From Acidimicrobiia bacterium (GTDB taxonomy: Bacteria; Actinomycetota; Acidimicrobiia; Spongiisociales; JAHEDJ01), in contig DATIPS010000058.1 of NCBI GenBank assembly GCA_035471805.1, positions 1,533 to 65,532 of the forward strand: a DNA stretch of 64,000 nucleotides, read 5' to 3'. The position numbers and the translations under genes are program-made. How positions within the stretch are numbered: position 1 is the stretch's first letter; each line of letters opens with the position of its first letter. Positions 5,212 through 55,779 of this stretch are shown one piece after another. Under the pieces are notes generated by a model. The model worked only from the letters and a program-made list of their open reading frames with translations, did no database searches and was not told the origin of the DNA.

Positions 5212-6612
5212 ATGCAGTTCTTCAACACACTCGGACGGACCATGGAGACGTTCGTTCCTCGCGATCCGGGCAAGGTTTCGATGTATGTGTGCGGTCCCAC
5301 AGTGCAATCCGAGCCCCACCTTGGCCATGGGCGGGCGGCTGTGGCGTTCGATGTGATTCGCCGCTATTTGAGGTGGCGGGGGTTCGAGGTGACTCATGTC
5401 CAGAATGTCACCGACATCGAAGACAAGATCATCGCCGCGGCAAACGAACGCGGGGTGCCGGTAGCCGACCTCGCCGCGGAGATGACCGCGCGCTTTGATG
5501 CCGCGTATCGCAGCCTCGGGGTCGAACGACCCGACATAGAGCCCCGGGCAACAGAGCATATAGACCAGATGCTCGACCTGATCTCAACTCTCGTCGAGCG
5601 TGGCCTGGCGTATTCCGCCGGCGCCGACGTCTACTTCGCAGTCCGATCCCTGCCCGGGTACGGGAAGCTCTCCGGAAGAAACCTGGACGACCTTCTGGCG
5701 GGTGCACGTGTCGCAGTGGGTGAGGACAAGCGAGACCCTCTCGACTTCGCATTGTGGAAGGGAGCGAAAGAGGGGGAACCCCGGTGGGATTCTCCTTGGG
5801 GTCCGGGTCGACCCGGCTGGCACATCGAGTGCTCGGCGATGGCGGCCGAGTATCTGGGCGACGGCTTCGACATCCACGGTGGGGGAGTGGACCTGATATT
5901 CCCGCATCACGAGAACGAGATCGCTCAATCTGAGGGTGCAGGGGCAGCCTCTTTCGCCCGCTACTGGTTGCACAACGAGATGCTGAACCTCGGTGGAGAG
6001 AAGATGGCCAAGTCCACCGGCCACGTCATCGACCTCGCCACGGCCATCAGTCTGTTCGGGGGGCCAACGGTCCGGCTTTTCTACCTGCGCGCTCACTATC
6101 GGTCTCCGCTCGAGTACTCGGAGCAACTGCTGAAGGACGCCGGAGCTTCGCTGGAGCGGTTGCAGGCTTTCCACCGTCGTTCTGTCGTCAGTGAGTCTCC
6201 GGCGGACCCGCAGCTGATGGGGCGGTTCACCGCGGCGATGGACGATGACTTCAACACCCCGGACGCGCTCGCCGTCGTCTTCGAGGCGGTGAAAGAGGGG
6301 AACCGCCGGCTCGACGAGGACCTCGATGCCGGTCCGGCGATCACGGCGTTTTCCTCGATGATCGCCGTCCTCGGCCTGGATCTGACGGGCACGGTTGGTG
6401 ATGATCTGGGCGGGCCGCTCGGGGCGATCGCCGACCGATTCGGTGTCAAAGGCTCCTCGACCGACGAGATCATCGCCGGTCTGCTGGCATTGCGAGCACG
6501 GGCGAGGGATGAGCGGGACTGGGCGACCTCGGACGGCATTCGCGACGATCTGGCCGATATCGGAGTGATTGTGGAGGACGGGGTCGATGGTGCCCGCTGG
6601 CATCGGGGATAG
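5212..6612 (+). CDS. cysS: cysteine--tRNA ligase
   Basis: HLGHGR (HIGH-type) and KMAKSTG (KMSKS) class I motifs; 466 aa. Confidence 0.9.
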
Positions 6613-7309
6613 CGTCGAAGGAGTTCATGCGGTGCGGGCGGCGCTGGCAGCGGGCCGTGTCGACAAACTGCTGGTCGATCGGCGCCGGCGAGACGACGTC
6701 GACGGCATGGTCGGTACGTCCGCAGTCCCCGTCGAGTTTGTCGACGATATCCGAGCCCACGCGCGGACCGAGGTTCCGCAAGGATTCGTCGCCCGATGTC
6801 GTCCAATCGCAACGGTCTCGCTGGAGGAGGCGATAGGGCTTGCCGATCCGCCGGCTCTGATGGTGCTCGATCACGTGGAGGATCCGCACAATCTCGGGGC
6901 GGTGGCGCGTTCGGCGGGCGCCGCCGGAATACCCGCCCTCGTCGTCGGTGGTCGGAGATCGGCACCCATAGGGGCGGTGGCATTCAAGGCGGCCGCCGGT
7001 GCGCTGGAGCATGTGCGCGTGTGCATCGTCAACTCGATCCCGGACGGAGTGGCGAGATTGAAGAAGGAGGGCGTATGGACCGTCGGGCTGGCCGCGCACG
7101 CGGCGGACAGCCTCTTCGGACTGCCGCTCCTCACCGAACCGGTCGCCATCGTCGCCGGCGCCGAGGGCAAGGGATTGAGCCGGCTCGTGGAACAGCGGGT
7201 CGACGTGCGGGCCTCTATTCCGATGAGCTCCGGTGTCGAAAGCCTCAACGTCTCGGTGGCGGCTGCGCTGGCGATGTTCGAGATCGGCAGAGCGCGCGGA
7301 AGCCTATGA
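6587..7309 (+). CDS. rlmB: TrmH/SpoU-family rRNA 2'-O-methyltransferase (RlmB-like)
   Basis: GVHAVRAAL N-terminus, DHVEDPHNLGAVARSA SpoU motif; start choice 6569/6587 uncertain; follows cysS as in mycobacteria. Confidence 0.75.
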   Translation: MVPAGIGDSVEGVHAVRAALAAGRVDKLLVDRRRRDDVDGMVGTSAVPVEFVDDIRAHARTEVPQGFVARCRPIATVSLEEAIGLADPPALMVLDHVEDPHNLGAVARSAGAAGIPALVVGGRRSAPIGAVAFKAAAGALEHVRVCIVNSIPDGVARLKKEGVWTVGLAAHAADSLFGLPLLTEPVAIVAGAEGKGLSRLVEQRVDVRASIPMSSGVESLNVSVAAALAMFEIGRARGSL

Positions 7310-7411
7310 CGGTATGCGGGTCTGTTTCGGCAGGCCCGTGTCAGTCCGAACACGCGCCTTCTTGAACCAGGAGCGCATGACCCCCACGACTCACTGGTCG
7401 CGCGACCCGAT

Positions 7412-7433
7412 CATGCCGCCGAATCCGGCATGG
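7412..7433. terminator. short GC hairpin between convergent rlmB and sensor-domain gene
   Basis: catgccg-ccgaatc-cggcatg inverted repeat; no U-tract. Confidence 0.25.
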
Positions 7434-7440
7434 TCTGCGG

Positions 7441-8049
7441 TCATTGATGGCTGGGGCCCAGCATCGCCCTGGCGAACTCGCCCCACACTCGTGCCATCCC
7501 GTTGATCGCATGGATCAGCACAAACCCGACCAGAACGGCCAACACTGCCAGCACGATCGCCTCACCCAACGTGTCGATGATCCACACTTCGTCGATCCAT
7601 CCACGACCGTCCAGGAACCAGGATCGCTCGTAGAAGAACGGCGCGGTGACCAGGGCGAATACCGATGCGGTAACGGTGATCATTACAAAGGAAACGATTC
7701 CGAAGACAAACTCGGTGAAGAGGTAGAAGACCCGCTTCCATGTCTCCGAACTCGTCACCAGGGCTTTGACCTTGGGCCACAATCCGCCTTCGACCTCAAG
7801 TCGATGGGCGGCCGGTGTCTCCTGTCCGAGAAGGAGATTGGTGGTGGTCCGTTCGAACTCCCCCATGCCGTAGGCGGCCGCCAGCACCCCAACCAGGATC
7901 GGTATTCCCAGCAAGGTGATGGACAATCCGAAACCGAGCGACAGTCCGGTAACTAGAAATACGAAATAGAAGATGCCGAGCGGGAAGGTCAACAGAAGGT
8001 ATCCGAAGTTTCTCCACGTCTGCGGTTTGGCTACTACATCAAAGAACAC
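7441..8049 (-). CDS. membrane protein with putative sensor domain (pfam13796-like)
   Basis: GTG start preceded by AGGAGG; two TM hairpins WRNFGYLLLTFPLGIFYFVFLV...; upstream 300 codons of the ORF look non-coding (Arg/Pro-rich). Confidence 0.55.
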   Translation of the reverse strand: MFFDVVAKPQTWRNFGYLLLTFPLGIFYFVFLVTGLSLGFGLSITLLGIPILVGVLAAAYGMGEFERTTTNLLLGQETPAAHRLEVEGGLWPKVKALVTSSETWKRVFYLFTEFVFGIVSFVMITVTASVFALVTAPFFYERSWFLDGRGWIDEVWIIDTLGEAIVLAVLAVLVGFVLIHAINGMARVWGEFARAMLGPSHQ

Positions 8050-8290
8050 AGCAAACCTCCTGGCGATCACCCTACGCCGAATACGAACCGCCTGATACGG
8101 GCATGAGGAGACCGGCCGGCAGGAAGCCGCACGTGGCTCGAGGGCCCTACGGCCCTGGTGGCCGCACCATTTACCCTGATATCGTGAAGGAGATCGGCTC
8201 GCCCGGCCCGGCCGATTCATCGGCCGCGGTAAGAGGTGACCGACTTCGGGAACGGGTTCCGGGGCGTATCTAGGTGAGGCGGAGCCGACC

Positions 8291-8992
8291 GTGTGCTTTT
8301 CACCTGAGGCGGATCTCATCGCCGGAGTTGTCATCACCGCCATCGGTGTTGACACGCTCCGCAGCGTCGAGCATCCGGCCGAGCGACCGCTGGCTTCGCT
8401 GCCTTTGATCTTCGGAACTCATCAACTGATTGAATCCCTCGTCTGGTGGGGTGTAGACGGCTGTGTCGGAGAAAGTGTCTCGCAGTGGTCCACCTGGCTC
8501 TATCTGGCCCTTGCGTTCGGCTTGCTTCCCTGGTTCGTTCCATGGGCGGTGCAGCGCATCGAGCCGCGGCCGCGGAGAAGGTCCCTGATGGCGCAACTGG
8601 CGGTGCTCGGAGCTTTCGTCAGCCTCCTCTTGATGTGGGCCATCATCGTCGGGCCGGTCGAAGTCGCCGATGCCGGATACCACCTCGATTACTCGGTATC
8701 CGTCCCCTACGGTGGCTACGTCGTAGCCTTGTATGTGGCCGCCACGTGTGGATCGCTTCTCCTTTCCTCCGACCGGTATTTGGCGATATACGGAGCCGGC
8801 AACCTGCTGGCGGTGAGTGCTCTGTCGGTATTGCTCTTCACGGGAGTCATATCACTCTGGTGTGTGTGGGCTGCGATCACCAGCGCAGCCATCGCGGTGC
8901 ACTTGCGACGGGCCGACTCACAGCGAAACCGGTTTCGAGCGGTCGGGATGAGCGGAGGCGGAAAAGCCTCGCCAAACCGACCCGTCGTCTAG
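8291..8992 (+). CDS. hypothetical polytopic membrane protein
   Basis: 233 aa, ~6 predicted TM helices, GTG start. Confidence 0.5.
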   Translation: MCFSPEADLIAGVVITAIGVDTLRSVEHPAERPLASLPLIFGTHQLIESLVWWGVDGCVGESVSQWSTWLYLALAFGLLPWFVPWAVQRIEPRPRRRSLMAQLAVLGAFVSLLLMWAIIVGPVEVADAGYHLDYSVSVPYGGYVVALYVAATCGSLLLSSDRYLAIYGAGNLLAVSALSVLLFTGVISLWCVWAAITSAAIAVHLRRADSQRNRFRAVGMSGGGKASPNRPVV

Positions 8993-9381
8993 CCGGCGGG
9001 AGCCAGCTTGGCGGGTCGCGGCCGAGGGTGCTCGCAGAGTTCGTAGTAGTTCCCGTCGGGTGCCCTGAAGTAGAACCAGCCGTGCCCATCCCTTCCCCGC
9101 TCGATGCTGGTGAGGCCATCGGCTCCGGCCTTCTCCAGTTCGCGATGGGCGGACTCGATATCGTCCACCCACAGCCCGGCAACCGGCCCTTGGTCGAGCT
9201 GGTCGTGCTCAACCGAATCGGGGCCGAAGAGTTCCAGACGGTCTCCGTTCTCCGCGACGAGTTGCGTGAATCCCGGAACATTCAAAGCGACCCGCAAGCC
9301 CAGGTGTTCGGCAAAGAAGTCGGACGTCGCCTGCCGGTCTTTGGTGGCCGAACCGACCCAGATGATTCCCTTGACCCGCAC
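8989..9381 (-). CDS. VOC/glyoxalase-bleomycin resistance family protein
   Basis: 130 aa, beta-alpha-beta-beta-beta pattern typical of VOC fold. Confidence 0.6.
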   Translation of the reverse strand: MRVKGIIWVGSATKDRQATSDFFAEHLGLRVALNVPGFTQLVAENGDRLELFGPDSVEHDQLDQGPVAGLWVDDIESAHRELEKAGADGLTSIERGRDGHGWFYFRAPDGNYYELCEHPRPRPAKLAPAG

Positions 9382-45022: not shown

Positions 45023-45955
45023 CTACCGTCTGCAGAGCTCGGCGAGGGCGCGTTCGAGATGCCAATCGACGCCGGCCGCGAGCTGCAGGTAGGTGCGCCG
45101 GATACCGGAGTGCTCCATTCTCTCGATCCACTCGCGATGCTGGTCCCAGGATCCGACCTGTATGCCGTCCGTTTGGCGATAGCGGGCGAGCAACTCTTCG
45201 GGATCGGCTTTGGTTCGCCGTGCCAGCCCGGCCGCCGCTTCGAGGAGTTCGGCATCGGAGTCCCCGCCCAGCATCGGCATGCAGGTCGAGATGAGGATCG
45301 CATCCGGATCACGGCCGGCCTCTTCGGCGGCCCGCCGCATCACCTCGATCCGCTCTGCGATGCCTTTCGGTTCGTGGTGGTACAGGTTGAACTCATCGGC
45401 GTACATACCTGCGAGAGTCGGAGTCTTCGCCGCGCCGGAGCCACCTATCAGGAGTCGCCTGCCTTCTCTGCGGGCCTTCGGATGTGAGTCGAATCCGGTG
45501 AAGCGGAAGAACTCGCCTTCGTGTCCACCCTGGGGGTTGTCGAAGTATTTGTGAACGTAGGCGAACGCGTCGGCGAGTTGGGCGAACCGAACCTTGCGAT
45601 CCGGGTAGTCGAGGCCGTGGTAGTGGTGCTCGTCGTCGTGCCATCCGGCACCGAGTCCGAGGGTGAATCTGCCCCCGGAGATCTCGTCGATTGTGATCGC
45701 CCCTTTGGCGTAGACCGCCGGATGACGAAAGGTGATCGGGCTGACCAGCATCACCAGTTCGAGGTCCCGGGTGTCGCGCGCCAGGGCGGCCGCCTGAAAC
45801 AGCGAGTCGTAGGCCGGGTTGCGGTAGTCCTGAGGTTTCGATCCGTACAGGTAATGATCGGCGAGGGCCAGGGCGACGGCTTTGGACTCTTCTGTGATGC
45901 GGGCGATGTTGGCTACGTGGGCGTAGTCGCCGACGACTTGAACTGCAATATCCAT
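45023..45955 (-). CDS. LLM-class (luciferase-like) flavin/F420-dependent oxidoreductase
   Basis: TIM-barrel LLM signature TLGLGAGW. Confidence 0.75.
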   Translation of the reverse strand: MDIAVQVVGDYAHVANIARITEESKAVALALADHYLYGSKPQDYRNPAYDSLFQAAALARDTRDLELVMLVSPITFRHPAVYAKGAITIDEISGGRFTLGLGAGWHDDEHHYHGLDYPDRKVRFAQLADAFAYVHKYFDNPQGGHEGEFFRFTGFDSHPKARREGRRLLIGGSGAAKTPTLAGMYADEFNLYHHEPKGIAERIEVMRRAAEEAGRDPDAILISTCMPMLGGDSDAELLEAAAGLARRTKADPEELLARYRQTDGIQVGSWDQHREWIERMEHSGIRRTYLQLAAGVDWHLERALAELCRR

Positions 45956-45992: not shown

Positions 45993-46832
45993 CTACCACG
46001 TATCTTCATCCGAGATGTCGCGATAGGGACGCCAGCGGCTCAGTTTGGCTGCGGTCCGGCGAGCTCGGTTGGCGAGATCTCGCCAGAGCTGGGCACTTCC
46101 CTGTCTCGAAAGCGCCAGCTCGTCCCACCGCTGAGCGGAGGCACTGAAGGTGGCGTGGAGAGCCGGGAGAGCCCCCGGATATGCATCCCATCCCTCGGGG
46201 AGCCGGCGACCCTCGACCGGTTGGTCGAAGAGGTCGGTCAGGTACCCGTTCAAGAGCACGGTTCCCCCCCACACCGAGAGCATCATCGTTTCGAATGGGG
46301 CGTCGTCGAGTGGTCCGTATCCATCGAATCCGGGAACCACCAGGCCTTCGGTGCCGGAGAGGGCCGGGGCCGGACGGTGCAGGTCACCGAGGTCCAGCAG
46401 GATCCGCTTCGCCTCGTTGGCGGTGTCGGTCGATGCCGGGTAGTGCCTGCCGACGGCGTCCAACCAGGGGATTGCCCAATGAAGGATCCGGTCGCCCAGG
46501 AGGAATCGCCTGTCTTCGTGCGCCCGGGTCGCGATGTGTCCCCGGTCGCCGGCCCATGCCTCGCCCTCCGCGCGGGCCAGCGCTGCTCCGAAACGTGCAA
46601 GATCGGAGAGATCGCCACCTTTGATGTCGTAGTTCCAGGTCCTGGCGCGTCTCGACAGGTCTTCAGCCGGGTTGAACAAGCGGACTACCGCAGCTTCCGT
46701 AGGTGGAACGTCGATCAGGGCGGGCTTCTGCCGCCCGGTGTGCCAGGCACGGGCGACGCTCATCCATTGGGCGGCTTCGGCATTGGAGCGCGCCGCCGCA
46801 TCCAGAGAAGAAGATGTCGGTGAGGTGGTCAT
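45993..46832 (-). CDS. hypothetical protein
   Basis: 279 aa; immediately downstream of Mo-enzyme gene, possibly co-transcribed. Confidence 0.5.
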   Translation of the reverse strand: MTTSPTSSSLDAAARSNAEAAQWMSVARAWHTGRQKPALIDVPPTEAAVVRLFNPAEDLSRRARTWNYDIKGGDLSDLARFGAALARAEGEAWAGDRGHIATRAHEDRRFLLGDRILHWAIPWLDAVGRHYPASTDTANEAKRILLDLGDLHRPAPALSGTEGLVVPGFDGYGPLDDAPFETMMLSVWGGTVLLNGYLTDLFDQPVEGRRLPEGWDAYPGALPALHATFSASAQRWDELALSRQGSAQLWRDLANRARRTAAKLSRWRPYRDISDEDTW

Positions 46833-46954: not shown

Positions 46955-49738
46955 TCAATGGGCCCTGTAAGCCTCCGGGCTTGGCTTCACCGGGCGATCC
47001 AGCCAGAGCGGTCGGCGGGTTCCATCGGGCCCCGGGCCCGGCTTCGTCTGCGCCAACCATTCCCTGTAGACCTCGAAACTCTTGGAAGTGTCCACAACCA
47101 CGTCACCGTACTGATCGCCCGGCTCGGCCTTCGTGATCCGCACCCGCTGGTGCCAGGCGTGCATGCCGGACACGGGATCGGGATGCGTCGGGAAGGTGAG
47201 ATTCTGGTGAACGCCCGCATCCTTCCACCAGATGCGCTCCGAGTCGGGATCGTCCGATTTGAAAGGTTCGATTCCTTTCTTCTGACGCATCATCCACGTG
47301 CTCGAACCGGTCTTCGTGATGTCCACCAGCGCCGATGACCACCGCTCGTTTCCGAAATCGTCCGAAAGGCGCCAACGACCGAGGTGGTGGCTCGCAGCCA
47401 CGACGCCCGGGCGTATGCCTTCCGTCCGCCAGGCACGAATCACGAAGTGGCCGTTGTCGGTGTTGACCCGCACCAGGTCACCGGTGTCAAGATCGAGCGC
47501 GTCGGCATCGACCGGGTTTATCCATAGAGGGTGGCCGTGGCTGATCTCATACAGGTACTTGGCGTTTCCGGATCTCGTGTGAATGAGCGTCGGCAAGCGA
47601 AAGATCGGCAGAAGGATCCTCTCGTTGCCGGCCATGTCCATTTCTCTCCAGTAGACGTGCGTCTTGAGATACGAGGGGATCGCCTGGTCTGGCCAGCCCC
47701 ATTCGTGCATCGTCTTCGACCACCACTCCAGTTTCTTGGACGGCGATTTGAATCCGGTGACTACATCCGAGTGGACCCGCACGCCCACCGGCTGGCCCTG
47801 TCTCCGGGCAATGCCGTTCATGCCGACGTCGTCGTAGGCGACCGGTCGCTCGTGGACCTCATAGATGTCCTTCTCCACCTCGACCGCGCCGTACTTGCGC
47901 ATGAACTCGAGCGGTGTGATCCCTTCAGCGGCCGCCTTGTCGGGGAGGCCGGGCACGGAGTTGTCGAACATCCACCCGTAGTATTCGTCGACCGAGATGG
48001 GCCGGTTCGGGTCGTTGGGCGACTGGAACCATTGCTTGATGCTCAGTTCGCCGTCCGGGTCGATCCGCCACGACAAGTCGATCCAGAACTCGGTCTCTTC
48101 CCAAACCTCACCCGGATTGGCCTCGTACGTGCGCTCGTATACCTTGCCGTCTCGTTCGCCGGCCACGCGCAGGACGGGTTGGCGGAAACCAAGCCACTGC
48201 CCGGCATGGGTTTCGTAGGAGTGCGTGTCGTGTCTCTCGGCACTCACACCCATCGGCAGGACGTAATCGGCGTACCAGGCCGTCTCCGACCAGGTGGGGG
48301 TGAGGGCGACGTGGAGGCCCACCATGTCCTCGTCTGTCAGCACTTCTATCCAGCTGAACCCATCGGGGTTGGTCCAAACGGGGTTGTATACGCGGGTGAA
48401 GTAGGTGTCGAGTTTCCCCCGACCTTCCTTGAGGAAGTAGGGGAGCAATATGCTCATCTCGTGGTGAGCCAGCGGATACTCGGGCGGCCACAGGAGCTCA
48501 TTCCACCGGTTGTGGGTGGGCGGCATGTTCCAGTGGGTCGGCTTGAACTTGTCCCAGGCGCTCGGCGAGGTGCCCCCCTTGGTGCCGACCGAGCCCGTGA
48601 GGACGTGCAGGAACCACAGGGTCCGGGAGACTTGCCAACCACCCAGATTGCCCGATCCTGCCGAACGCCAGGTGTGACTGGCGAACCGGTGTCCGGCCTC
48701 GGCGATCCCCCTGGCGACCTCCACGAGACGGTCGGCATCGACACCCGACTCCTCGGCGGCCCACTCAGGGGTGTAGGAGGCGTAGGTCTCCTTCAGCACT
48801 GCGATGAACTCGCTGAACGTGCAGGGTCGATCGGGGTAGACCTCGGTGAGGGTCTGCTCCCAGTTGACCCAACGCTCCACGAAGGAGCGATCGATGGCGT
48901 CCCATTCGAGGAGCAGCCGGGCGATGGCGAGCAACATTGCTGCCTCGGTTCCCGGATAGGGCGATAGCCAGATGTCCGACATGGAGGCGGTGTTTGACAG
49001 CCGCGGGTCGATGGTGGCGAGTTTCGCACCCGCCTGCTTGCCCTCCATGATCCGTTGTGCGTGAGGGTTGAAATAGTGGCCGGTTTCCAGGTGAGAGGAC
49101 AACAGCAGAATGAATCGGGCGTTGGCGAAGTCGGCGGAAGGGCGGTCGTGTCCCATCCACATGGCGTAACCAACCCGGGCACCGGACGAGCAGATATTGG
49201 TGTGCGAGTTGTGGCCGTCGACCCCCCAGGCCTTCAGAGTGCGATCCATGAAGCCGTCCTCGCCGGGACGGCCGACGTGATACATGATCTCGTCGTTGCG
49301 ATCCTCCTGGAGCGCCTTGCGCATCCGGCCCGCGATGTCGTCGAGTGCTTCGTCCCAGGAGACCCGCTCCCACTCGCCCGAACCGCGCGGACCCTTGCGC
49401 CGCATCGGGTACAAGATGCGTTCGGGGTCGTAGACCTGGTTGATCGTTGCCGGGCCCTTGGCGCAGTTGCGTCCGCGTGATCCCGGGTGTTCGGGGTTCC
49501 CTTCGAAGCGGCGAATCTCCCCCGTGTCCTTGTCGATCACGGCAAGTAGACCGCAGGCGGATTCGCAGTTGAAACAGGTGGTCGGCACCATACGCACGTT
49601 GTGCTTGACCTTCTCCGGCCAGGCCTGTGCGTCGTACTCCTCCCAATCGTCCCACCGGTCGGGTGGCGGGAAACTGGTGAGTTCGGTTCCCGGCAGCAAT
49701 CGGGGAATCTCGAGGTCCGGCTCTCGGTGTGCGGTCAT
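46955..49738 (-). CDS. molybdopterin-guanine-dinucleotide oxidoreductase catalytic subunit (PsrA/PhsA/SoeA-like), no twin-arginine signal
   Basis: 927 aa; N-terminal CFNCESACGLL [4Fe-4S] motif; MopB domains; no RRxF in first 40 aa. Confidence 0.85.
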   Translation of the reverse strand: MTAHREPDLEIPRLLPGTELTSFPPPDRWDDWEEYDAQAWPEKVKHNVRMVPTTCFNCESACGLLAVIDKDTGEIRRFEGNPEHPGSRGRNCAKGPATINQVYDPERILYPMRRKGPRGSGEWERVSWDEALDDIAGRMRKALQEDRNDEIMYHVGRPGEDGFMDRTLKAWGVDGHNSHTNICSSGARVGYAMWMGHDRPSADFANARFILLLSSHLETGHYFNPHAQRIMEGKQAGAKLATIDPRLSNTASMSDIWLSPYPGTEAAMLLAIARLLLEWDAIDRSFVERWVNWEQTLTEVYPDRPCTFSEFIAVLKETYASYTPEWAAEESGVDADRLVEVARGIAEAGHRFASHTWRSAGSGNLGGWQVSRTLWFLHVLTGSVGTKGGTSPSAWDKFKPTHWNMPPTHNRWNELLWPPEYPLAHHEMSILLPYFLKEGRGKLDTYFTRVYNPVWTNPDGFSWIEVLTDEDMVGLHVALTPTWSETAWYADYVLPMGVSAERHDTHSYETHAGQWLGFRQPVLRVAGERDGKVYERTYEANPGEVWEETEFWIDLSWRIDPDGELSIKQWFQSPNDPNRPISVDEYYGWMFDNSVPGLPDKAAAEGITPLEFMRKYGAVEVEKDIYEVHERPVAYDDVGMNGIARRQGQPVGVRVHSDVVTGFKSPSKKLEWWSKTMHEWGWPDQAIPSYLKTHVYWREMDMAGNERILLPIFRLPTLIHTRSGNAKYLYEISHGHPLWINPVDADALDLDTGDLVRVNTDNGHFVIRAWRTEGIRPGVVAASHHLGRWRLSDDFGNERWSSALVDITKTGSSTWMMRQKKGIEPFKSDDPDSERIWWKDAGVHQNLTFPTHPDPVSGMHAWHQRVRITKAEPGDQYGDVVVDTSKSFEVYREWLAQTKPGPGPDGTRRPLWLDRPVKPSPEAYRAH

Positions 49739-49750
49739 GCGATCCCTTTC

Positions 49751-51319
49751 CTACGAGAGCGGAACACTCTGCCCGGCTTTCACGAATGCGTCGTCGGCGA
49801 ACCAGATCCCCGCCGACGCGGCTAATCCTCCAACGGCTCCTATCCATGTGGCTCCTCCGGCGAGCATGATGGAGCCGAGAGCTATCGGAACGACCACGCC
49901 GATCAGCTGTCCACCGATCCACCATTCCCTGGCGAAGTGGCCGCGGGTCATGTGGTGCATGGCCGCCTCGATGTTCCTGGTCGGGTGAGGTGTAGTCAGT
50001 TCGGCCAGTGCAATCAATCCGAGAACCGAGCAACCGATCACGAGCGTCCATCCGAATGCTCGCTCGGCCGTTTCCCCGACATCGAAGAACAGCGAGGCGA
50101 TCAAGGCCACGCCGCCGCCTGCCGCGAAAGCTCCCGCAATCATGTGGTAGAGCAGCACCGGACTCTGCCACAGGTCACGTGCTTCGGCCTGGCCGAACAG
50201 GAAGGCGGTGTATCCGGCGGTGGCGATGCCCAGCGGCAGTCCGATCCATGCCATGATCTCGACCAGGCCGTCCAACTCGAACAATCCCGCCAGGAACCAC
50301 ACGGCCAGGACGGCCGCATAGGCGCTCAGAATGTAGGCGCCCCGCACCAGCCACGATCCCGGGTTGCCTTTGATGATCAGGTAGTGGAATCGATCGGGGC
50401 GTTTGAGGTCCCAGATCAGCAGCACGCCGGTCAGCGCCAGAAACAATCCGGCGACCAGCGGTGTCGTCCAACGCATCCAGTTGCTTGTGAGTGAGGCGCC
50501 GAACAGCATTGCCATCGCAACGGCGATCGCCAGCCCGGCCGCGATACCTTTCGTGAGGAAGTAGGCGGACACGCGCCATCCCCACGGTGCCGGGTGATCG
50601 GTGTTGTATACGACGCGCGGTGGAGCGGCAGCATGATCCGAGGCCGCCGAAGGAGTCTGCCGGCGGCCGTTGGAGCCGGGGGTCAGGTCGACTGCCATGA
50701 AAGACCCTTCCGATGCTGGTTCGCGCCAAATGCCGCCATCGTGGAGGCTCGTCGCCGCCAGGGGATCGATGCTGGCGCCGTCTGCCCCCAGGTAGAAGAG
50801 GTTGGGGCCGGTTCCCTGTTCGGGAGCGCGGACGGTGGTGACCCGCGTCCGCACCAACCCGGCGATCTCAGTTGTGGGATCGTCCAGGTCGCCGGCGACG
50901 ATGGCGTGTTCGGGACAGACGACGACGCAAGCCGGCTCGAGGCCCACCTCGACGCGGTGGACGCAGTAGTTGCACTTCTGAGCGGTGTGCTCGTTGGGGT
51001 CGATGTAGAGCGAGTCGTACGGGCAAGCCTGCATGCACGATTTGCACCCGATGCAGCGGCTGGTATCGAAGTCGACGATGCCGTCGGAGCGCTTGTTGAG
51101 CGCAGTGGTCGGGCAGATCGCCACGCACGGTGCGTCGGTGCAATGGTTGCACCGCATTACCGAGAAGAAACGCTTGGTTTCCGGCCAGGCGCCTTTCTCT
51201 ACGTACTTGACCCATGTGCGGTTGACCCCCAGCGGAACCCCGTGCTCGGTCTTACAGGCGACCGTGCATGCGTGGCAGCCAATGCATTTCGTCTGGTCGA
51301 TGACAAATCCGTACCTCAG
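49751..51319 (-). CDS. fused 4Fe-4S ferredoxin (PsrB/NrfC/SoeB-like) and NrfD/PsrC-like membrane anchor
   Basis: First-ATG ORF starts at 51157 (MRCNHC). In-frame upstream sequence encodes RYGFVIDQTKCIGCHACTVACK, the canonical first Cys cluster. True start is probably a non-ATG codon near 51319 (CTG after GGGAGGG); upstream TAG at 51338. Confidence 0.7.
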   Translation of the reverse strand: MRYGFVIDQTKCIGCHACTVACKTEHGVPLGVNRTWVKYVEKGAWPETKRFFSVMRCNHCTDAPCVAICPTTALNKRSDGIVDFDTSRCIGCKSCMQACPYDSLYIDPNEHTAQKCNYCVHRVEVGLEPACVVVCPEHAIVAGDLDDPTTEIAGLVRTRVTTVRAPEQGTGPNLFYLGADGASIDPLAATSLHDGGIWREPASEGSFMAVDLTPGSNGRRQTPSAASDHAAAPPRVVYNTDHPAPWGWRVSAYFLTKGIAAGLAIAVAMAMLFGASLTSNWMRWTTPLVAGLFLALTGVLLIWDLKRPDRFHYLIIKGNPGSWLVRGAYILSAYAAVLAVWFLAGLFELDGLVEIMAWIGLPLGIATAGYTAFLFGQAEARDLWQSPVLLYHMIAGAFAAGGGVALIASLFFDVGETAERAFGWTLVIGCSVLGLIALAELTTPHPTRNIEAAMHHMTRGHFAREWWIGGQLIGVVVPIALGSIMLAGGATWIGAVGGLAASAGIWFADDAFVKAGQSVPLS

Positions 51320-51375: not shown

Positions 51376-51600
51376 CTACGCTTTCTCGACCACGAAGTGA
51401 TACTCGCTGTCCTGTTCGAACTGTTCCTTCAACGGGTTGCCCGTGTCCTTCGACCAGGCCGGGATGTCGCTGAGGGCGCCGCGGTCGGTTGCGACGAGTT
51501 CGATTGTCTGGCCGGCGGCGGCACCGCTGACGGCCTGACTGAGTTTGAGAACGGGCATCGGGCATTGAAGATTGCGAGCGTCGACGATGATGTCGGCCAT
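51376..51600 (-). CDS. tusA: TusA-family sulfurtransferase
   Basis: 74 aa, CPMP (CPxP) active-site motif at residues 13-16. Confidence 0.75.
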   Translation of the reverse strand: MADIIVDARNLQCPMPVLKLSQAVSGAAAGQTIELVATDRGALSDIPAWSKDTGNPLKEQFEQDSEYHFVVEKA

Positions 51601-51612
51601 GTGCTCTCCTTT

Positions 51613-52140
51613 CTAGATGAACAAGCTGATCGAAGCCTCTTTCATGAGGCTAATTGCGGAACCCGCCCCGACGGGTGCGGAGAGGCCGTCGATGAGATGC
51701 TCATCCTTGAGGCCCATCAAATCCATCGTCATCTGGCACGGCCAGAGGTTCACTCCGAGGCTGATCGCCATTTCGAGCAACTCCTGTACGGAAGCGACGT
51801 TGTGGTCTTCCGCCAGGCCGCGCATCATTGCCGGGCCCATGCCGGCGAAATGGAGCTTGGACAATCCGAGTTTGGACGGCGACGCGTTGTGAAACATCGA
51901 AAGCATCTTCTGGCGCCAGTCGTCGCCCGTCAGGCCGGCATCCTCCTTCTTGAGGATGCCGAGTCCCCAGAAGGTGAAGAAGACCGTGACATCCATGCCG
52001 TAGGCGGCACCGGTGGTGGCCAGGATGAGCACCGGCCAGGCCTTGTCCAGATCGCCCGAAGCGGCGATGATGACCATCTTCTCCTTCTCAGGAGTCGTCT
52101 TATCGGCGACAGGTTCGGTCTGATGAGCAGTATCGGTCAT
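51613..52140 (-). CDS. DsrE/DsrF-family sulfur-relay protein
   Basis: AGGAGG RBS then MTDTAHQ; DsrE-like Rossmann fold. Confidence 0.6.
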   Translation of the reverse strand: MTDTAHQTEPVADKTTPEKEKMVIIAASGDLDKAWPVLILATTGAAYGMDVTVFFTFWGLGILKKEDAGLTGDDWRQKMLSMFHNASPSKLGLSKLHFAGMGPAMMRGLAEDHNVASVQELLEMAISLGVNLWPCQMTMDLMGLKDEHLIDGLSAPVGAGSAISLMKEASISLFI

Positions 52141-52283: not shown

Positions 52284-52613
52284 ATGCAATCCGTCGCCGA
52301 CGAGCTAACCGCGCTGCACGCCAGGGTCTGCAAGGGCATAGCGGACCCCAAGCGCCTCCTCATCCTCAACGCCCTCCGTGGCGGTGAGCGCTCCGTGATG
52401 GAGCTGTGCGACGATCTGGGCTTGCCTCAGGCCAATGTATCGCAACATCTCGCGGTGCTTCGGGACCGCGGTCTGGTCTGCACCCGCAGAGATGCTCAAC
52501 GGGTGTTCTACTCGTTGACTTCGGTCAAGATCGTCGAAGCCATCGATCTCTTGCGCGAGGTGATGGCAGAGCAGGCAGGCTCGGGTAGCGAGTCGCGCGC
52601 AGCCGGCCGGTAG
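52284..52613 (+). CDS. ArsR/SmtB-family transcriptional regulator (possible BigR/SqrR/CstR-like sulfur sensor)
   Basis: wHTH LADPKRLLILNAL...ELC signature; Cys at positions 16, 42, 66 of the short form; start at ATG 52284. Confidence 0.75.
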   Translation: MQSVADELTALHARVCKGIADPKRLLILNALRGGERSVMELCDDLGLPQANVSQHLAVLRDRGLVCTRRDAQRVFYSLTSVKIVEAIDLLREVMAEQAGSGSESRAAGR

Positions 52614-52730: not shown

Positions 52731-53858
52731 ATGCCCGGCTCGATTACCACCGACGATCTTGCCGCGCGGATCGAGGATCCCGAGAACGCCCCCTACATCC
52801 TCGACTTGCGTGCCGGGGACCAGTTCGAACGCTGGCGCATCGAGGGCAAACTGGCGCTCGACACGGTGAATGTGCCTTACTGGACGGCGCTTGGAGACAT
52901 CGAAGGCATCGCCGCCACGCTTCCCGACGATCGCGACGTGATAGCTATCTGCGCGCACGGAGGATCCTCGGGCATGGTGGTTGAGATGATGGACAAGCCG
53001 AACGTCAAGAACCTCGATGGTGGCATGGACCTGTGGGCTAACACGCTCATACCGCGAGTCCTTTTCGACGACGGCACTCACTTCGTGATCCAGCTGGATC
53101 GAATGGCAAAGGCGTGCCTGTCCTATGCCGTCGGTGCGCGCGGTCACAACATGGCCGTCATTGATCCGGCCGCCGACATCGACCGCTACCTGGCGCTGGC
53201 CGAGAGCTACGGGTCGAAACTGTCCGACATCTTCGATACCCATCTCCACGCCGACCACATATCGATCGGCGCTGCGATGGCCGAGCGCACCGGCGGCACC
53301 TACCGGATCGCGCCGGGCGATGCGGAGGACGCGGTCTTCGAGTACTCGCCTCTGGAGGACGGCCAGGTGTTCACGTTCGGCGAGCTTGAGATGATCGTAC
53401 GGTCGGTGGCGACGCCCGGGCATACTCCCGGATCGACATCACTCGAAGTGCACGGACGATTCCTGATGACGGGTGATGCCGTGTTCGTGACCGGCGTTGG
53501 ACGGCCGGATCTCGGCGGCGAGACCGAGCCCTGGGCCAGGGACCTGTTCAACACGATTCATGTCAAGTTGTCGCCGCTCGATCCGAACCTCGAGGTCTGC
53601 CCCGCGCACTACACGAGCCGCGCCGAATCGCGTGACGACGGGACCTTGCGCCGCAATCTCGGGGATCTGCTCGAGAATGATCCGGTGGTCTCGATTGCGG
53701 ACGAGTCGGAGTTCGTTGATTTCGTGGTGTCCCACCTCGGCGAGCCCCCGGCGATCTACAACGATATCCGAAAGGTGAACCTGGGCTTGCTCAGGCCCGA
53801 CGCAGAGAAGGCGAAGGAACTCGAAGTCGGCCGCAATGAGTGCGCCCTTTCCAAGTGA
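52731..53858 (+). CDS. rhodanese-MBL fold fusion protein (persulfide dioxygenase-like)
   Basis: N-terminal rhodanese with active-site Cys (ICAHGGSSG); C-terminal MBL fold with HLHADH (HxHxDH) motif. Confidence 0.8.
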   Translation: MPGSITTDDLAARIEDPENAPYILDLRAGDQFERWRIEGKLALDTVNVPYWTALGDIEGIAATLPDDRDVIAICAHGGSSGMVVEMMDKPNVKNLDGGMDLWANTLIPRVLFDDGTHFVIQLDRMAKACLSYAVGARGHNMAVIDPAADIDRYLALAESYGSKLSDIFDTHLHADHISIGAAMAERTGGTYRIAPGDAEDAVFEYSPLEDGQVFTFGELEMIVRSVATPGHTPGSTSLEVHGRFLMTGDAVFVTGVGRPDLGGETEPWARDLFNTIHVKLSPLDPNLEVCPAHYTSRAESRDDGTLRRNLGDLLENDPVVSIADESEFVDFVVSHLGEPPAIYNDIRKVNLGLLRPDAEKAKELEVGRNECALSK

Positions 53859-53896
53859 CGGGTGGCCGGCTCCGGAACCCGGGTAACCTCTCTGTC

Positions 53897-54244
53897 GTGA
53901 GCATTCCCCGGAGCCCGATTCTTCCGAACAACGGAAGCCGTGCGCGCGACCATCTCGCCAACGAGCGGACCTACCTCGCCTGGGTGAGGACTGCGCTCGG
54001 CATCATCGGTCTGGGTGTCCTCGTGGAGAAGCTCATTGAGTTGCAGGGCGTGGCGGCGGAAATCGCCGGGTTGAGCATGGTGGCCATGGGGGCTGCGGCG
54101 CTCGTTTACGCAACATTTCGCTACGAGCGAGTGCGGAGGCAGCTCGAAGAAGGGATGTTCCAGACCGCATCCACCGGCCCGATCGTGATCACTGCGCTGG
54201 GGCTGATCATGACGGTCGTCGCCGTCGTTTTCGTCCTGCTGTAG
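53897..54244 (+). CDS. DUF202 (YidH) family small membrane protein
   Basis: LANERTYLAWVRT signature followed by two TM helices. Confidence 0.6.
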   Translation: MSIPRSPILPNNGSRARDHLANERTYLAWVRTALGIIGLGVLVEKLIELQGVAAEIAGLSMVAMGAAALVYATFRYERVRRQLEEGMFQTASTGPIVITALGLIMTVVAVVFVLL

Positions 54245-54252
54245 GCGGAGAC

Positions 54253-55779
54253 TTGACGCCGCCGACAGGAAAGAGAGGCCGCCCGCGAACGGGGGACGTC
54301 ATCGCCGGGCTGAGTGTTGCCCTCATCCTCGTCCCGCAATCGCTGGCCTACGCCGAACTGGCCGGTTTGCCGCCCTTCGTTGGCCTGTACGCGGCTGCGC
54401 TGCCGCCCCTTGCCGCCGCCTTCCTCGCTTCATCCCCGTATCTCCAGACAGGGCCGGTGGCGATGACGGCCTTGCTGACCTTCGGAGCTCTGAGAGGGAT
54501 AGGGGCCGAGCCGGGCACCGCCGAGTACGTGGCGCTGGCCGCCTTGCTGGCGCTCATCGTTGGGGCGGTGCGGACCTTGATCGGGGTCGCCCGCGGCGGG
54601 TTTCTCGCCTACTTCATGTCGCAGCCCGTACTGATCGGGTTCACCTCTGCCGCGGCAATCCTCATTCTCTCCTCACAGTTCCCCACCGCGGTCGGCGTGT
54701 CGGCCCCGGCCTCCAGAATCCTCGGAAAGCTCTGGTGGACACTGACCCACTTCTCAGAATGGGATCCGGCGGCCGTCGTAATATCGCTGACGACCATCGG
54801 GCTGGTTGTAGGGGGGCGGAGGCTGCATCGGCTTTTCCCCGGCGTGTTGGTGGCAGTCATCGCAGGGATCCTCTACAGCACGATGTCCGGCTACGAAGGA
54901 TTCATCGTCGGAGACGTTCCGGCCGGCCTACCGCCCTTTTCGCTCGACCTGCCGTGGCATTCATTGCCGTCGCTGCTCGTCAGCGGTGTGGTCATTGCAC
55001 TCGTCGGGTTTGCCGAAGCGGCCGCCATCTCGCGCACGTTCGCCGCCCAGGATCGTCAGACCTGGAACCCGAGCAAGGAGTTCGTGAGCCAGGGCATCGC
55101 CAATCTCGCCTCCGGCATCTCGGGCGGCTTTCCGGTGGGCGGGTCGTTCTCCCGCTCGTCCGTGAATCGTCTGGCCGGTGGCAAGACCCGTTGGTCCGGT
55201 GCCGTCACCGGGATTGCGGTGCTGGCCTTCCTCCCGGTCGCCGGCGTGCTTTCTCCGCTACCCCAGGCAGTTCTCGCAGCCATCGTGATTTCTGCAGTCG
55301 CCCGCCTCATCCGGATCTCGCCTTTGTGGTCGATGTGGAGCTATTCGAAACCCCAGACCACGGTGCTGTGGACGACTTTCCTCCTGACTCTGATTCTCAG
55401 CCCTCGCATCGAGATCGCCGTGATTGTCGGGATCGGGCTCGGAATCCTCATTCACCTGTGGCGCGAGATCAAAATCGGCGTGCAAGCGAGCTACGACGGC
55501 GGGACGTTGCATCTGACACCGACCGGAGTCTTGTACTTCGGCTCTGCGCCGCAGCTGAATGAAGCGCTGCTGGCGTTGTTGACGAGCCATCCTGAGGCCA
55601 GAGCCATGGTATTCGATCTCGGCAATCTGGGTCGGATCGACTACACCGGCGCGCTCGTCCTCAAGAGCGTGGCGGACGAGGCAGTGGCTGCAGGACTCGA
55701 GATCTCATTCGAGAATGTTCCGCCGCAAACGAGGCGGATACTGGGCCGCGTGCTCGAGCAGAAGCTGCCGATTCCCTAG
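54253..55779 (+). CDS. SulP-family anion permease with C-terminal STAS domain
   Basis: TTG start; GLSVALILVPQSLAYA SulP N-terminal motif; C-terminal STAS. Confidence 0.8.
   Translation: MTPPTGKRGRPRTGDVIAGLSVALILVPQSLAYAELAGLPPFVGLYAAALPPLAAAFLASSPYLQTGPVAMTALLTFGALRGIGAEPGTAEYVALAALLALIVGAVRTLIGVARGGFLAYFMSQPVLIGFTSAAAILILSSQFPTAVGVSAPASRILGKLWWTLTHFSEWDPAAVVISLTTIGLVVGGRRLHRLFPGVLVAVIAGILYSTMSGYEGFIVGDVPAGLPPFSLDLPWHSLPSLLVSGVVIALVGFAEAAAISRTFAAQDRQTWNPSKEFVSQGIANLASGISGGFPVGGSFSRSSVNRLAGGKTRWSGAVTGIAVLAFLPVAGVLSPLPQAVLAAIVISAVARLIRISPLWSMWSYSKPQTTVLWTTFLLTLILSPRIEIAVIVGIGLGILIHLWREIKIGVQASYDGGTLHLTPTGVLYFGSAPQLNEALLALLTSHPEARAMVFDLGNLGRIDYTGALVLKSVADEAVAAGLEISFENVPPQTRRILGRVLEQKLPIP

Follow-up and report, generated by a model that had tools for sequence, protein, structure and literature searches.

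The stretch of DNA examined here, which we call the window, comprises 64,000 nucleotides of contig DATIPS010000058.1 from an Acidimicrobiia bacterium, and our subject is a pair of adjacent genes on its minus strand that appear to encode a two-subunit molybdoenzyme of the membrane. One of them, an open reading frame at 46955..49738 (minus strand) with an ATG start and a GC content of 0.81 at third codon positions, specifies a catalytic subunit of the MopB type, 927 residues long and predicted to bind a molybdenum-bis(pyranopterin guanine dinucleotide) (Mo-bisPGD) cofactor. The other, directly upstream of it at 49751..51319 (minus strand), specifies a protein of 522 residues in which a PsrB-like ferredoxin is fused to an NrfD membrane anchor (Pfam Fer4_11 and NrfD). 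In what follows, we describe the two genes, their neighbours and their relatives, and we argue that the complex probably oxidizes sulfite on the cytoplasmic side of the membrane.

The catalytic subunit has the complete MopB architecture that a preliminary description of this locus had attributed to it. Pfam recognizes Molybdop_Fe4S4 (PF04879) at residues 50-104, Molybdopterin (PF00384) at residues 107-511 (65 bits against a cut-off of 24), and Molydop_binding (PF01568) at residues 720-788 (57.8 bits against a cut-off of 26.8), and the expected Cx2Cx3C motif for an N-terminal [4Fe-4S] cluster lies inside the first of these matches as C55-x2-C58-x3-C62, with C92 as the fourth ligand. In alignments to solved structures, Cys183 coincides with the molybdenum ligand Cys173 of Thermus thermophilus PsrA; it is unchanged in 61 close homologs, and we regard it as the putative molybdenum ligand. 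With both molybdopterin domains, the N-terminal [4Fe-4S] motif, and the molybdenum-ligand cysteine, the protein belongs to the MopB superfamily. An AlphaFold model (predicted local distance difference test score, 80.7) has ArrA and PsrA as its closest solved folds and also matches the fold of Nap. The N-terminus, quoted earlier as MTAHREPDLEIPRLLPGTELTSFPPPDRW, was given correctly, and only the strand (minus) had gone unstated.

The same description had claimed that the protein lacks the RRxF(L/I)K leader of the twin-arginine translocation (Tat) pathway, and the claim holds for the protein itself as well as for its near relatives. The 54 residues ahead of the Fe-S motif contain neither an arginine pair nor a hydrophobic h-region. 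Among the complete N-termini of 120 close homologs (76-90% identity; every one from a metagenome genome of Acidimicrobiia), none has a Tat-like motif, and the peak 12-residue hydropathy before the Fe-S motif has a mean of 0.22 and a maximum of 1.31 in this set. A longer N-terminus, or an upstream alternative start, is impossible because the preceding gene ends, in the same frame, with a TAG four codons ahead of the ATG, so that the upstream start with an arginine leader that was looked for is excluded; a ribosome-binding site, GAAAGGGA, lies between the two codons. Read-through of this stop, which would join the ferredoxin-NrfD and MopB genes, was also considered and rejected in view of the TAG, the ribosome-binding site after it, and the homologs, in which the two are separate genes.

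The 120 close homologs keep a hydrophilic extension of the form IPRLxPG..LT.FPPPxRWDDWxEYDAxAWP. In the window, this extension of about 50 residues, with its PPPxRWDDW segment, corresponds to 49576-49738 (MopB residues 1-54), and its conservation extends throughout the Tat-less clade; the Tat-bearing relatives P0127, P0167, and P0157 have a related PPxxxW segment after their signal peptide. The extension may be a docking or chaperone-binding segment. As to whether the best homologs depend on Tat, the answer is favourable to the earlier claim for the closest ones and is qualified by the next tier. The closest homologs (42-90% identity), which come from Acidimicrobiia, Rhodococcus, Thermomicrobium, haloarchaea, and Chlorobium, are all Tat-less, whereas outside this clade the complete-looking relatives (32-47% identity) among the top 150 matches from 1.84 billion cluster representatives are nearly all Tat-dependent.

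The partner protein begins directly at its first ferredoxin cluster, without a leader or signal peptide. Its ferredoxin part has 16 cysteines for four [4Fe-4S] clusters, and a linker of about 90 residues connects it with the NrfD domain (Pfam NrfD, 83 bits, E 3e-23), in which hydropathy and alignment delineate eight hydrophobic segments. The partner module had been described as of the PsrB/NrfD type; the type was right, but the separate PsrB and NrfD genes are in fact one fused gene. It should be mentioned that the sole start candidate of this gene is a CTG (window 51317-51319, minus strand), because a TAG lies six codons upstream and no ATG, GTG, or TTG is available; the CTG is preceded by GGGAGGG, and in homologs a TTG, GTG, or ATG serves as the start at this residue. 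Either this is a case of rare CTG initiation or the codon is a sequencing error.

The orientation of the anchor was assessed by counting the lysine and arginine residues in the loops of five fused proteins, in an alignment that also contained two stand-alone NrfD subunits from Tat-dependent relatives. The ratios of the N-terminal (ferredoxin) side to the other side are 10:2 in the window protein and 12:1, 12:0, 11:2, and 12:1 in the other four, whereas the separate NrfD subunits of the Tat-dependent operons have the opposite bias (2:4 in Azoarcus and 4:10 in Sulfurovum). Because of this reversal, and following the positive-inside rule, the fused anchor is predicted to be inverted, with the ferredoxin and MopB parts in the cytoplasm. 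In addition, the Tat-type operons contain a gene for a TorD-family chaperone, whereas the fused type has none or has an Mrp/NBP35 ATPase instead, a cytoplasmic Fe-S carrier ATPase that agrees with a cytoplasmic placement. The signal-less fusion, the inverted charge bias, and the lack of a TorD-type gene thus support a predicted arrangement in which the whole complex faces the cytoplasm, as had been proposed from the missing leader.

The genes around the pair belong to two divergent sulfur operons. Upstream of the fusion, on the same strand and in the same operon, separated by intervals of 12 and 56 bp, are genes for a DsrE2-like sulfurtransferase with a single cysteine in a WPCQ motif (51613..52140, minus strand; Pfam DrsE_2, E 2.5e-48) and a TusA-family sulfur carrier with a CPMP motif containing Cys13 (51376..51600, minus strand; Pfam TusA, E 4e-21). 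The divergent operon, on the plus strand, consists of genes for an ArsR/SmtB-family regulator with three cysteines (52284..52613; Pfam HTH_5, E 2e-16), a fusion of a rhodanese with a metallo-beta-lactamase of the persulfide-dioxygenase type (52731..53858; Pfam Rhodanese and Lactamase_B), a small DUF202 (YidH-like) membrane protein (53840..54244; Pfam DUF202, E 1.7e-20), and a SulP-family anion transporter with a STAS domain (54253..55779; Pfam Sulfate_transp, E 2.6e-84, and STAS). The best solved relatives of the rhodanese fusion include BpPRF (5ve3), the persulfide dioxygenase of Myxococcus (4ysb), human ETHE1 (4chl), and CstB (3r2u), and it is a likely source of cytoplasmic sulfite; the SulP protein is a candidate exporter of sulfate or sulfite. 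The ArsR gene, placed here between the two operons, has the same position in L001 (another Acidimicrobiia contig), in Rhodococcus jostii RHA1, and in other Acidimicrobiia loci. At the equivalent position in Thermomicrobium (L003 5084-5362) is a gene annotated as a "metal-sensitive transcriptional regulator", which, from this name, we take to be of the CsoR type. Both the ArsR and the CsoR family include known persulfide sensors, and a role of the ArsR-type regulator as a sulfane-sulfur sensor is plausible. A scan of the operon for promoters and terminators found no excess of sites over shuffled controls.

The pair is widespread. A scan of one genome per species gave at least 595 confirmed MopB relatives, and the details reported here come from the best 80 of these at least 595 relatives, whose identities to the window protein are 58-80%. 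Their hosts include Acidimicrobiia, Chloroflexota, Acidobacteriota, Bacteroidota, Chlorobiaceae, Gemmatimonadales, Planctomycetota, Binatia, and others; two-gene complexes at this level of identity occur in at least 10 bacterial phyla; the scan and a plasmid search together place the family also in Actinomycetota and haloarchaea. The fused partner is directly upstream of the MopB gene in 77 of the 80 loci. On plasmid pRHL3 of R. jostii RHA1, where the MopB protein is 60% identical to that of the window, the genes for a metallo-beta-lactamase, two DUF202 proteins, and ArsR are followed divergently by those for DsrE, TusA, ferredoxin-NrfD, MopB, and Mrp/NBP35. The window layout is thus matched in RHA1, as it is in Acidimicrobiia loci, with DsrE and TusA upstream of the complex in both and with the two DUF202 genes of RHA1 at the position of the single one here. 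On the megaplasmid of Thermomicrobium roseum, the regulator gene mentioned above precedes those for ferredoxin-NrfD and MopB (62% identity), and haloarchaeal plasmids hold the gene pair with MopB identities of 53-57%. The MopB proteins of RHA1, Thermomicrobium, and the haloarchaea are all Tat-less.

Gene contexts were compared in those related loci, 44 in number, whose sequence extends 5 kb or more past the gene pair on each side. A sulfur-related neighbour (persulfide-dioxygenase-like protein, rhodanese, TusA/DsrE, or anion transporter) is detectable in 22 of these 44 loci: a persulfide-dioxygenase-like metallo-beta-lactamase in 15, a rhodanese in 16, SulP, TauE, or DUF202 in 16, and TusA or DsrE in 7. 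In a locus from an Acidobacteriaceae metagenome-assembled genome (L061 5615-7297), genes for a CysK-like (PALP) protein and a hexapeptide acetyltransferase lie directly upstream of the complex, an order suggestive of a connection with cysteine metabolism in Acidobacteriota.

The most informative relative is that of Chlorobium sp. N1 (L075 11847-18054). Its MopB protein, of 955 residues and without a Tat signal, is 61% identical to that of the window over 910 residues, essentially end to end, and its partner is a Fer4_11 and NrfD fusion of 521 residues; two other Chlorobiaceae loci give MopB identities of 59-60%. The gene order in Chlorobium sp. N1 is ferredoxin-NrfD, MopB, a TauE/SafE sulfite exporter, a DsrE2-like protein, a rhodanese, TusA, a DsrN-like amidase, and a DsrA-like sulfite-reductase subunit. 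The complex therefore stands immediately upstream of the dsr cluster, with DsrE2 downstream of it. Green sulfur bacteria have been credited with a polysulfide-reductase-like complex 3 (PSRLC3), a predicted cytoplasmic sulfite oxidase, which consists of two genes (PMC5473276), has been seen as an alternative sulfite-oxidizing system (PMC6338057), and was "inferred to be sulfite oxidase" (PMC9324843); these three papers trace it to Frigaard and Bryant 2008 and Gregersen et al. 2011. From its two-gene layout and its context, rather than from a locus tag, we infer that the Chlorobium homolog is PSRLC3. The genes CT0494-0496 are a three-gene psrABC and are not the complex in question.

Because of the 61% identity to the two-gene Chlorobium complex beside dsr, and because the layout matches that in the literature, the pair in the window is placed in the PSRLC3-type family. 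In both the window and Chlorobium, there is a PsrA-like protein together with a single gene for the Fe-S and membrane parts, and both are tied to sulfite-producing genes: TauE, DsrE2, rhodanese, TusA, and dsr in Chlorobium, and the rhodanese-persulfide-dioxygenase, TusA, and DsrE in the window. The differences lie in the host and the partners. The window comes from an aerobic-type lineage of Acidimicrobiia and has no dsr genes within it, and the partners here are the persulfide dioxygenase, SulP, and DUF202, whereas in Chlorobium they are Dsr and TauE. The complex is best described as an Acidimicrobiia member of a two-gene PSRLC3-type family that has already been predicted in green sulfur bacteria and is known from sequence.

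We propose that MopB and the ferredoxin-NrfD fusion form a two-gene, cytoplasm-facing molybdoenzyme of the membrane that oxidizes sulfite to sulfate and delivers the electrons to quinone, and we give this proposal a probability of roughly 0.6; the substrate, the acceptor, and the direction of the reaction are all deduced from the features described above. Cytoplasmic sulfite would most likely come from the rhodanese-persulfide-dioxygenase, with persulfide sulfur handled by TusA and DsrE. Sulfite would then be oxidized to sulfate at the Mo-bisPGD centre, of which Cys183 would be the protein ligand, and the two electrons would travel by way of five [4Fe-4S] clusters, the N-terminal one and the four of the ferredoxin, to a site for (mena)quinone within the inverted NrfD domain. 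SulP and DUF202 would export the sulfate or any excess of sulfite. Given the potentials of the sulfate/sulfite and menaquinone couples, the oxidative direction would be thermodynamically favoured. The preliminary description had likened the protein to SoeA and assigned it a sulfite-oxidizing role, and this role fits the neighbours, namely, the persulfide dioxygenase, TusA, DsrE, and SulP in the window, and TauE and dsr in Chlorobium.

Several observations weigh against this proposal. The closest solved and named relatives of the catalytic subunit are reductases, namely, PsrA (sequence match, E 2e-32), ArrA (Foldseek, 2.8e-39), PhsA, and DmsA; the fold matches have template-modelling scores, normalized to the window protein, of 0.74-0.79. 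Several Tat-dependent cluster representatives of the Psr/Phs-like kind score 272-386 bits, and the top 150 representatives include no full-length, Tat-less protein of SoeA size from outside the clade. In the other 22 of the 44 long-flank loci, no recognizable sulfur neighbour was found, and a Gemmatimonadales locus lies among unrelated genes with nothing related to sulfur nearby. We found in the literature no biochemical or genetic test of any member of the fused two-gene family. Finally, with TusA and DsrE in the operon, the enzyme might in truth act on protein-bound sulfur and not on free sulfite.

The system with which the pair is most naturally compared is SoeABC of Allochromatium vinosum (Alvin_2491-2489) and Aquifex aeolicus (Aq_1234/1232/1231). 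Here, too, Mo-bisPGD and an N-terminal [4Fe-4S] cluster are combined with a four-cluster ferredoxin, as in the window, and with an inverted, cofactor-free, eight-helix anchor of the NrfD/PsrC-like type; there are no export signals, and the redox subunits are cytoplasmic (PMC8076601). On the other hand, SoeABC is encoded by three separate genes in the order A-B-C, the order also given for Sulfobacillus (PMC5114278), whereas in the window a BC fusion is followed by A, and SoeABC has genetic and biochemical support, whereas the fused family is known from sequence. The architecture, the predicted orientation, and the sulfur context support the view that the complex works like SoeABC.

The comparison with the reductases runs differently. 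PsrABC of T. thermophilus (2vpw), PhsABC of Salmonella, and ArrAB of Shewanella (6cz7) have in common with the window complex the molybdenum-ligand cysteine and the three subunit types, but they are Tat-exported, periplasm-facing reductases with separate B and C subunits, whereas the window complex has no Tat signal, an inverted anchor, and insertions of about 150-200 residues. A further group is that of the Tat-dependent B-C-A-TorD operons of Azoarcus sp. KH32C (pAZKH), Sulfurovum mangrovi, P0127, and P0167, which have the same order of B, C, and A (31-47% identity), a PPxxxW segment ahead of the Fe-S motif, and an NrfD subunit that aligns readily with that of the window. What sets them apart is that they have a canonical RRxFLK signal, encode B and C in two genes, include a gene for a TorD-family chaperone, and have an NrfD whose charge bias is the reverse of that in the window. 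A formate:quinone oxidoreductase ("Fqo", reported in Actinobacteria and Chlorobi) was also considered as an identity for the window complex and rejected, with a formate dehydrogenase score of 89 bits against a cut-off of 1400.

How closely the complex is related to SoeABC is a separate question from how it works. It might be argued that the protein is a true ortholog of the proteobacterial and Aquifex SoeA (Alvin_2491, KEGG K21307), in which B and C have become fused and the gene order has changed. The common predicted orientation, cofactor set, and types of partner subunit speak for this (PMC8076601), and one review, paraphrasing Dahl 2013, counts genes for SoeABC-type, polysulfide-reductase-like molybdoproteins as universal in purple and green sulfur bacteria (PMC8232776). 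Against it stand not only the gene order but also the distribution: in a KEGG-based survey, SoeC occurs only in Proteobacteria, Clostridia, and Aquificae and not in the phyla where the fused family is common (PMC8076601), whereas the fused family is found in Actinomycetota, Chloroflexota, Acidobacteriota, Bacteroidota, Chlorobi, and haloarchaea, and the three SoeC-bearing groups are nearly missing from it (best 80 of at least 595 relatives). Moreover, SoeC is reported to be less than 25% identical to other NrfD-type anchor families and to form a separate sequence cluster (PMC6303296), whereas the anchor in the window is plainly Pfam NrfD at the E value given above and aligns readily with ordinary NrfD subunits. 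Because no Tat-less outsider of SoeA size is present among the top 150 cluster representatives, the proteobacterial SoeA is probably more distant than the Tat-dependent reductases. No SoeA model is among the 23 NCBIfam matches of the protein, and searches of the PDB by sequence and by fold gave no sulfite dehydrogenase of the SoeA type. Candidates for SoeA from a tblastn search of plasmids (Agrobacterium, Paraburkholderia, Caballeronia, and Tritonibacter) turned out to be unrelated, stand-alone MopB genes and not soeABC. Orthology is accordingly quite unlikely in our judgement, and the gene layout, the distribution, and these indirect scores suggest that the fused complex is a lineage separate from SoeABC that has reached the same orientation.

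Other readings concern the substrate, the direction, and the location of the reaction. If the complex acts on protein-bound sulfur, TusA and DsrE would bring a persulfide or thiosulfonate to the molybdenum site for oxidation or cleavage, with the electrons going to quinone, and the system would be a quinone-linked alternative to reverse Dsr or sHdr. The DsrE-like and TusA genes directly upstream of the complex in the operon, here and likewise in RHA1 and L088, and the DsrE2, rhodanese, and TusA genes less than 3 kb from it in Chlorobium are what one would then expect; however, TusA or DsrE is a neighbour in only 7 of the 44 long-flank loci and is absent from L001, Thermomicrobium, and Natrinema, and the persulfide dioxygenase, which can already make sulfite, is the commoner neighbour (15 of 44). 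Rhodanese, TusA, and DsrE2 are known as a gene set linked to Dsr, and in Chlorobium, where they lie between the complex and dsr, they may serve Dsr instead. We therefore regard protein-bound sulfur as an unlikely substrate. A farther-reaching version, according to which the complex takes sulfane sulfur or thiosulfonate directly from TusA/DsrE and constitutes a third cytoplasmic route into the respiratory chain, beside reverse Dsr and sHdr, in heterotrophs of more than 10 phyla including haloarchaea, seems to us improbable. Much the same doubt attaches to a cytoplasm-facing reductase of thiosulfate, polysulfide, tetrathionate, or a related compound, driven by quinol and releasing sulfide for assimilation or detoxification. 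Such an enzyme would agree with the reductases among the best named and solved relatives and with the partial NCBIfam matches to PhsA and DmsA, with the CysK-like and acetyltransferase genes directly upstream in the Acidobacteriaceae locus, and with the rhodanese fusion in the window, which is of the BpPRF type; fusions of this type have been linked to sulfur assimilation. Yet none of the NCBIfam reductase models is anywhere close to its cut-off (199 against 694 bits for PhsA, 89 against 1750 for TtrA, 109 against 1600 for ArrA, and 205 against 778 for DmsA/YnfE), an inverted complex with its quinone site by the cytoplasmic ferredoxin would offer no drive for the reduction, and the sulfite exporter and dsr in Chlorobium, like the persulfide dioxygenase elsewhere, point to the removal of sulfite. 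That the complex is periplasmic after all, through an unrecognized signal or by hitch-hiking on its partner, is scarcely credible. Most relatives at 32-47% identity do have canonical Tat signals, but neither the protein nor its 120 homologs have an arginine motif or an h-region, the sole partner is signal-less and fused to an anchor whose charge bias places it inside, and no TorD-type gene is present. Haloarchaea export most of their secreted proteins by Tat, and their homologs also lack the arginine pair. Sulfite oxidation at the cytoplasmic face, with quinone as the acceptor, remains the reading that we prefer.

If the complex is indeed a cytoplasmic sulfite:quinone oxidoreductase, the respiratory oxidation of sulfite to sulfate is under-counted in metagenomic surveys of the sulfur cycle. 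Many heterotrophs make sulfite inside the cell, by persulfide dioxygenase, sulfonate breakdown, or cysteine catabolism, and the route of its removal is often unclear. The family is widespread and conserved, being about 60% identical across phyla and present in at least several hundred species, and is poorly annotated, as just "molybdopterin-dependent oxidoreductase". It also offers a clear natural case of an inverted NrfD-type module, which is relevant to the dispute about ion translocation by such anchors.

Two further relatives deserve a brief mention. P0125, a cluster representative of 1220 residues with 47% identity, has lost its Fe-S cysteines (TAAGGHPNAC) and contains a long insertion rich in proline and alanine; it may be a degenerate or non-catalytic paralog. 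On the plasmid of Sulfurovum mangrovi (L009 ~5968-9170), the Tat-type MopB gene is split over two frames and has no entry in the gene table of PLSDB, from which pseudogenes are excluded; either a frameshift has made it a pseudogene or the assembly is in error.

Farther out than the genes treated here, those of the window are unrelated. Downstream of the MopB gene is one for a conserved hypothetical protein of 279 residues (45993..46832, minus strand) with no Pfam or NCBIfam match, 43% identical to the product of the gene at the same position in L001. It is seen in 5 of the 80 related loci, all from Acidimicrobiia, and its position is filled by the Mrp/NBP35 ATPase in Rhodococcus, Natrinema, and one other actinobacterial locus; the protein may be an assembly factor. 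Farther downstream, at 45023-45955 (minus strand), is a gene for a luciferase-like monooxygenase with no tie to the operon. Its best match, below the cut-off, is to the F420-dependent family TIGR03560; dimethylsulfone and alkanesulfonate monooxygenases match it more weakly, and the protein could be a further source of sulfite.

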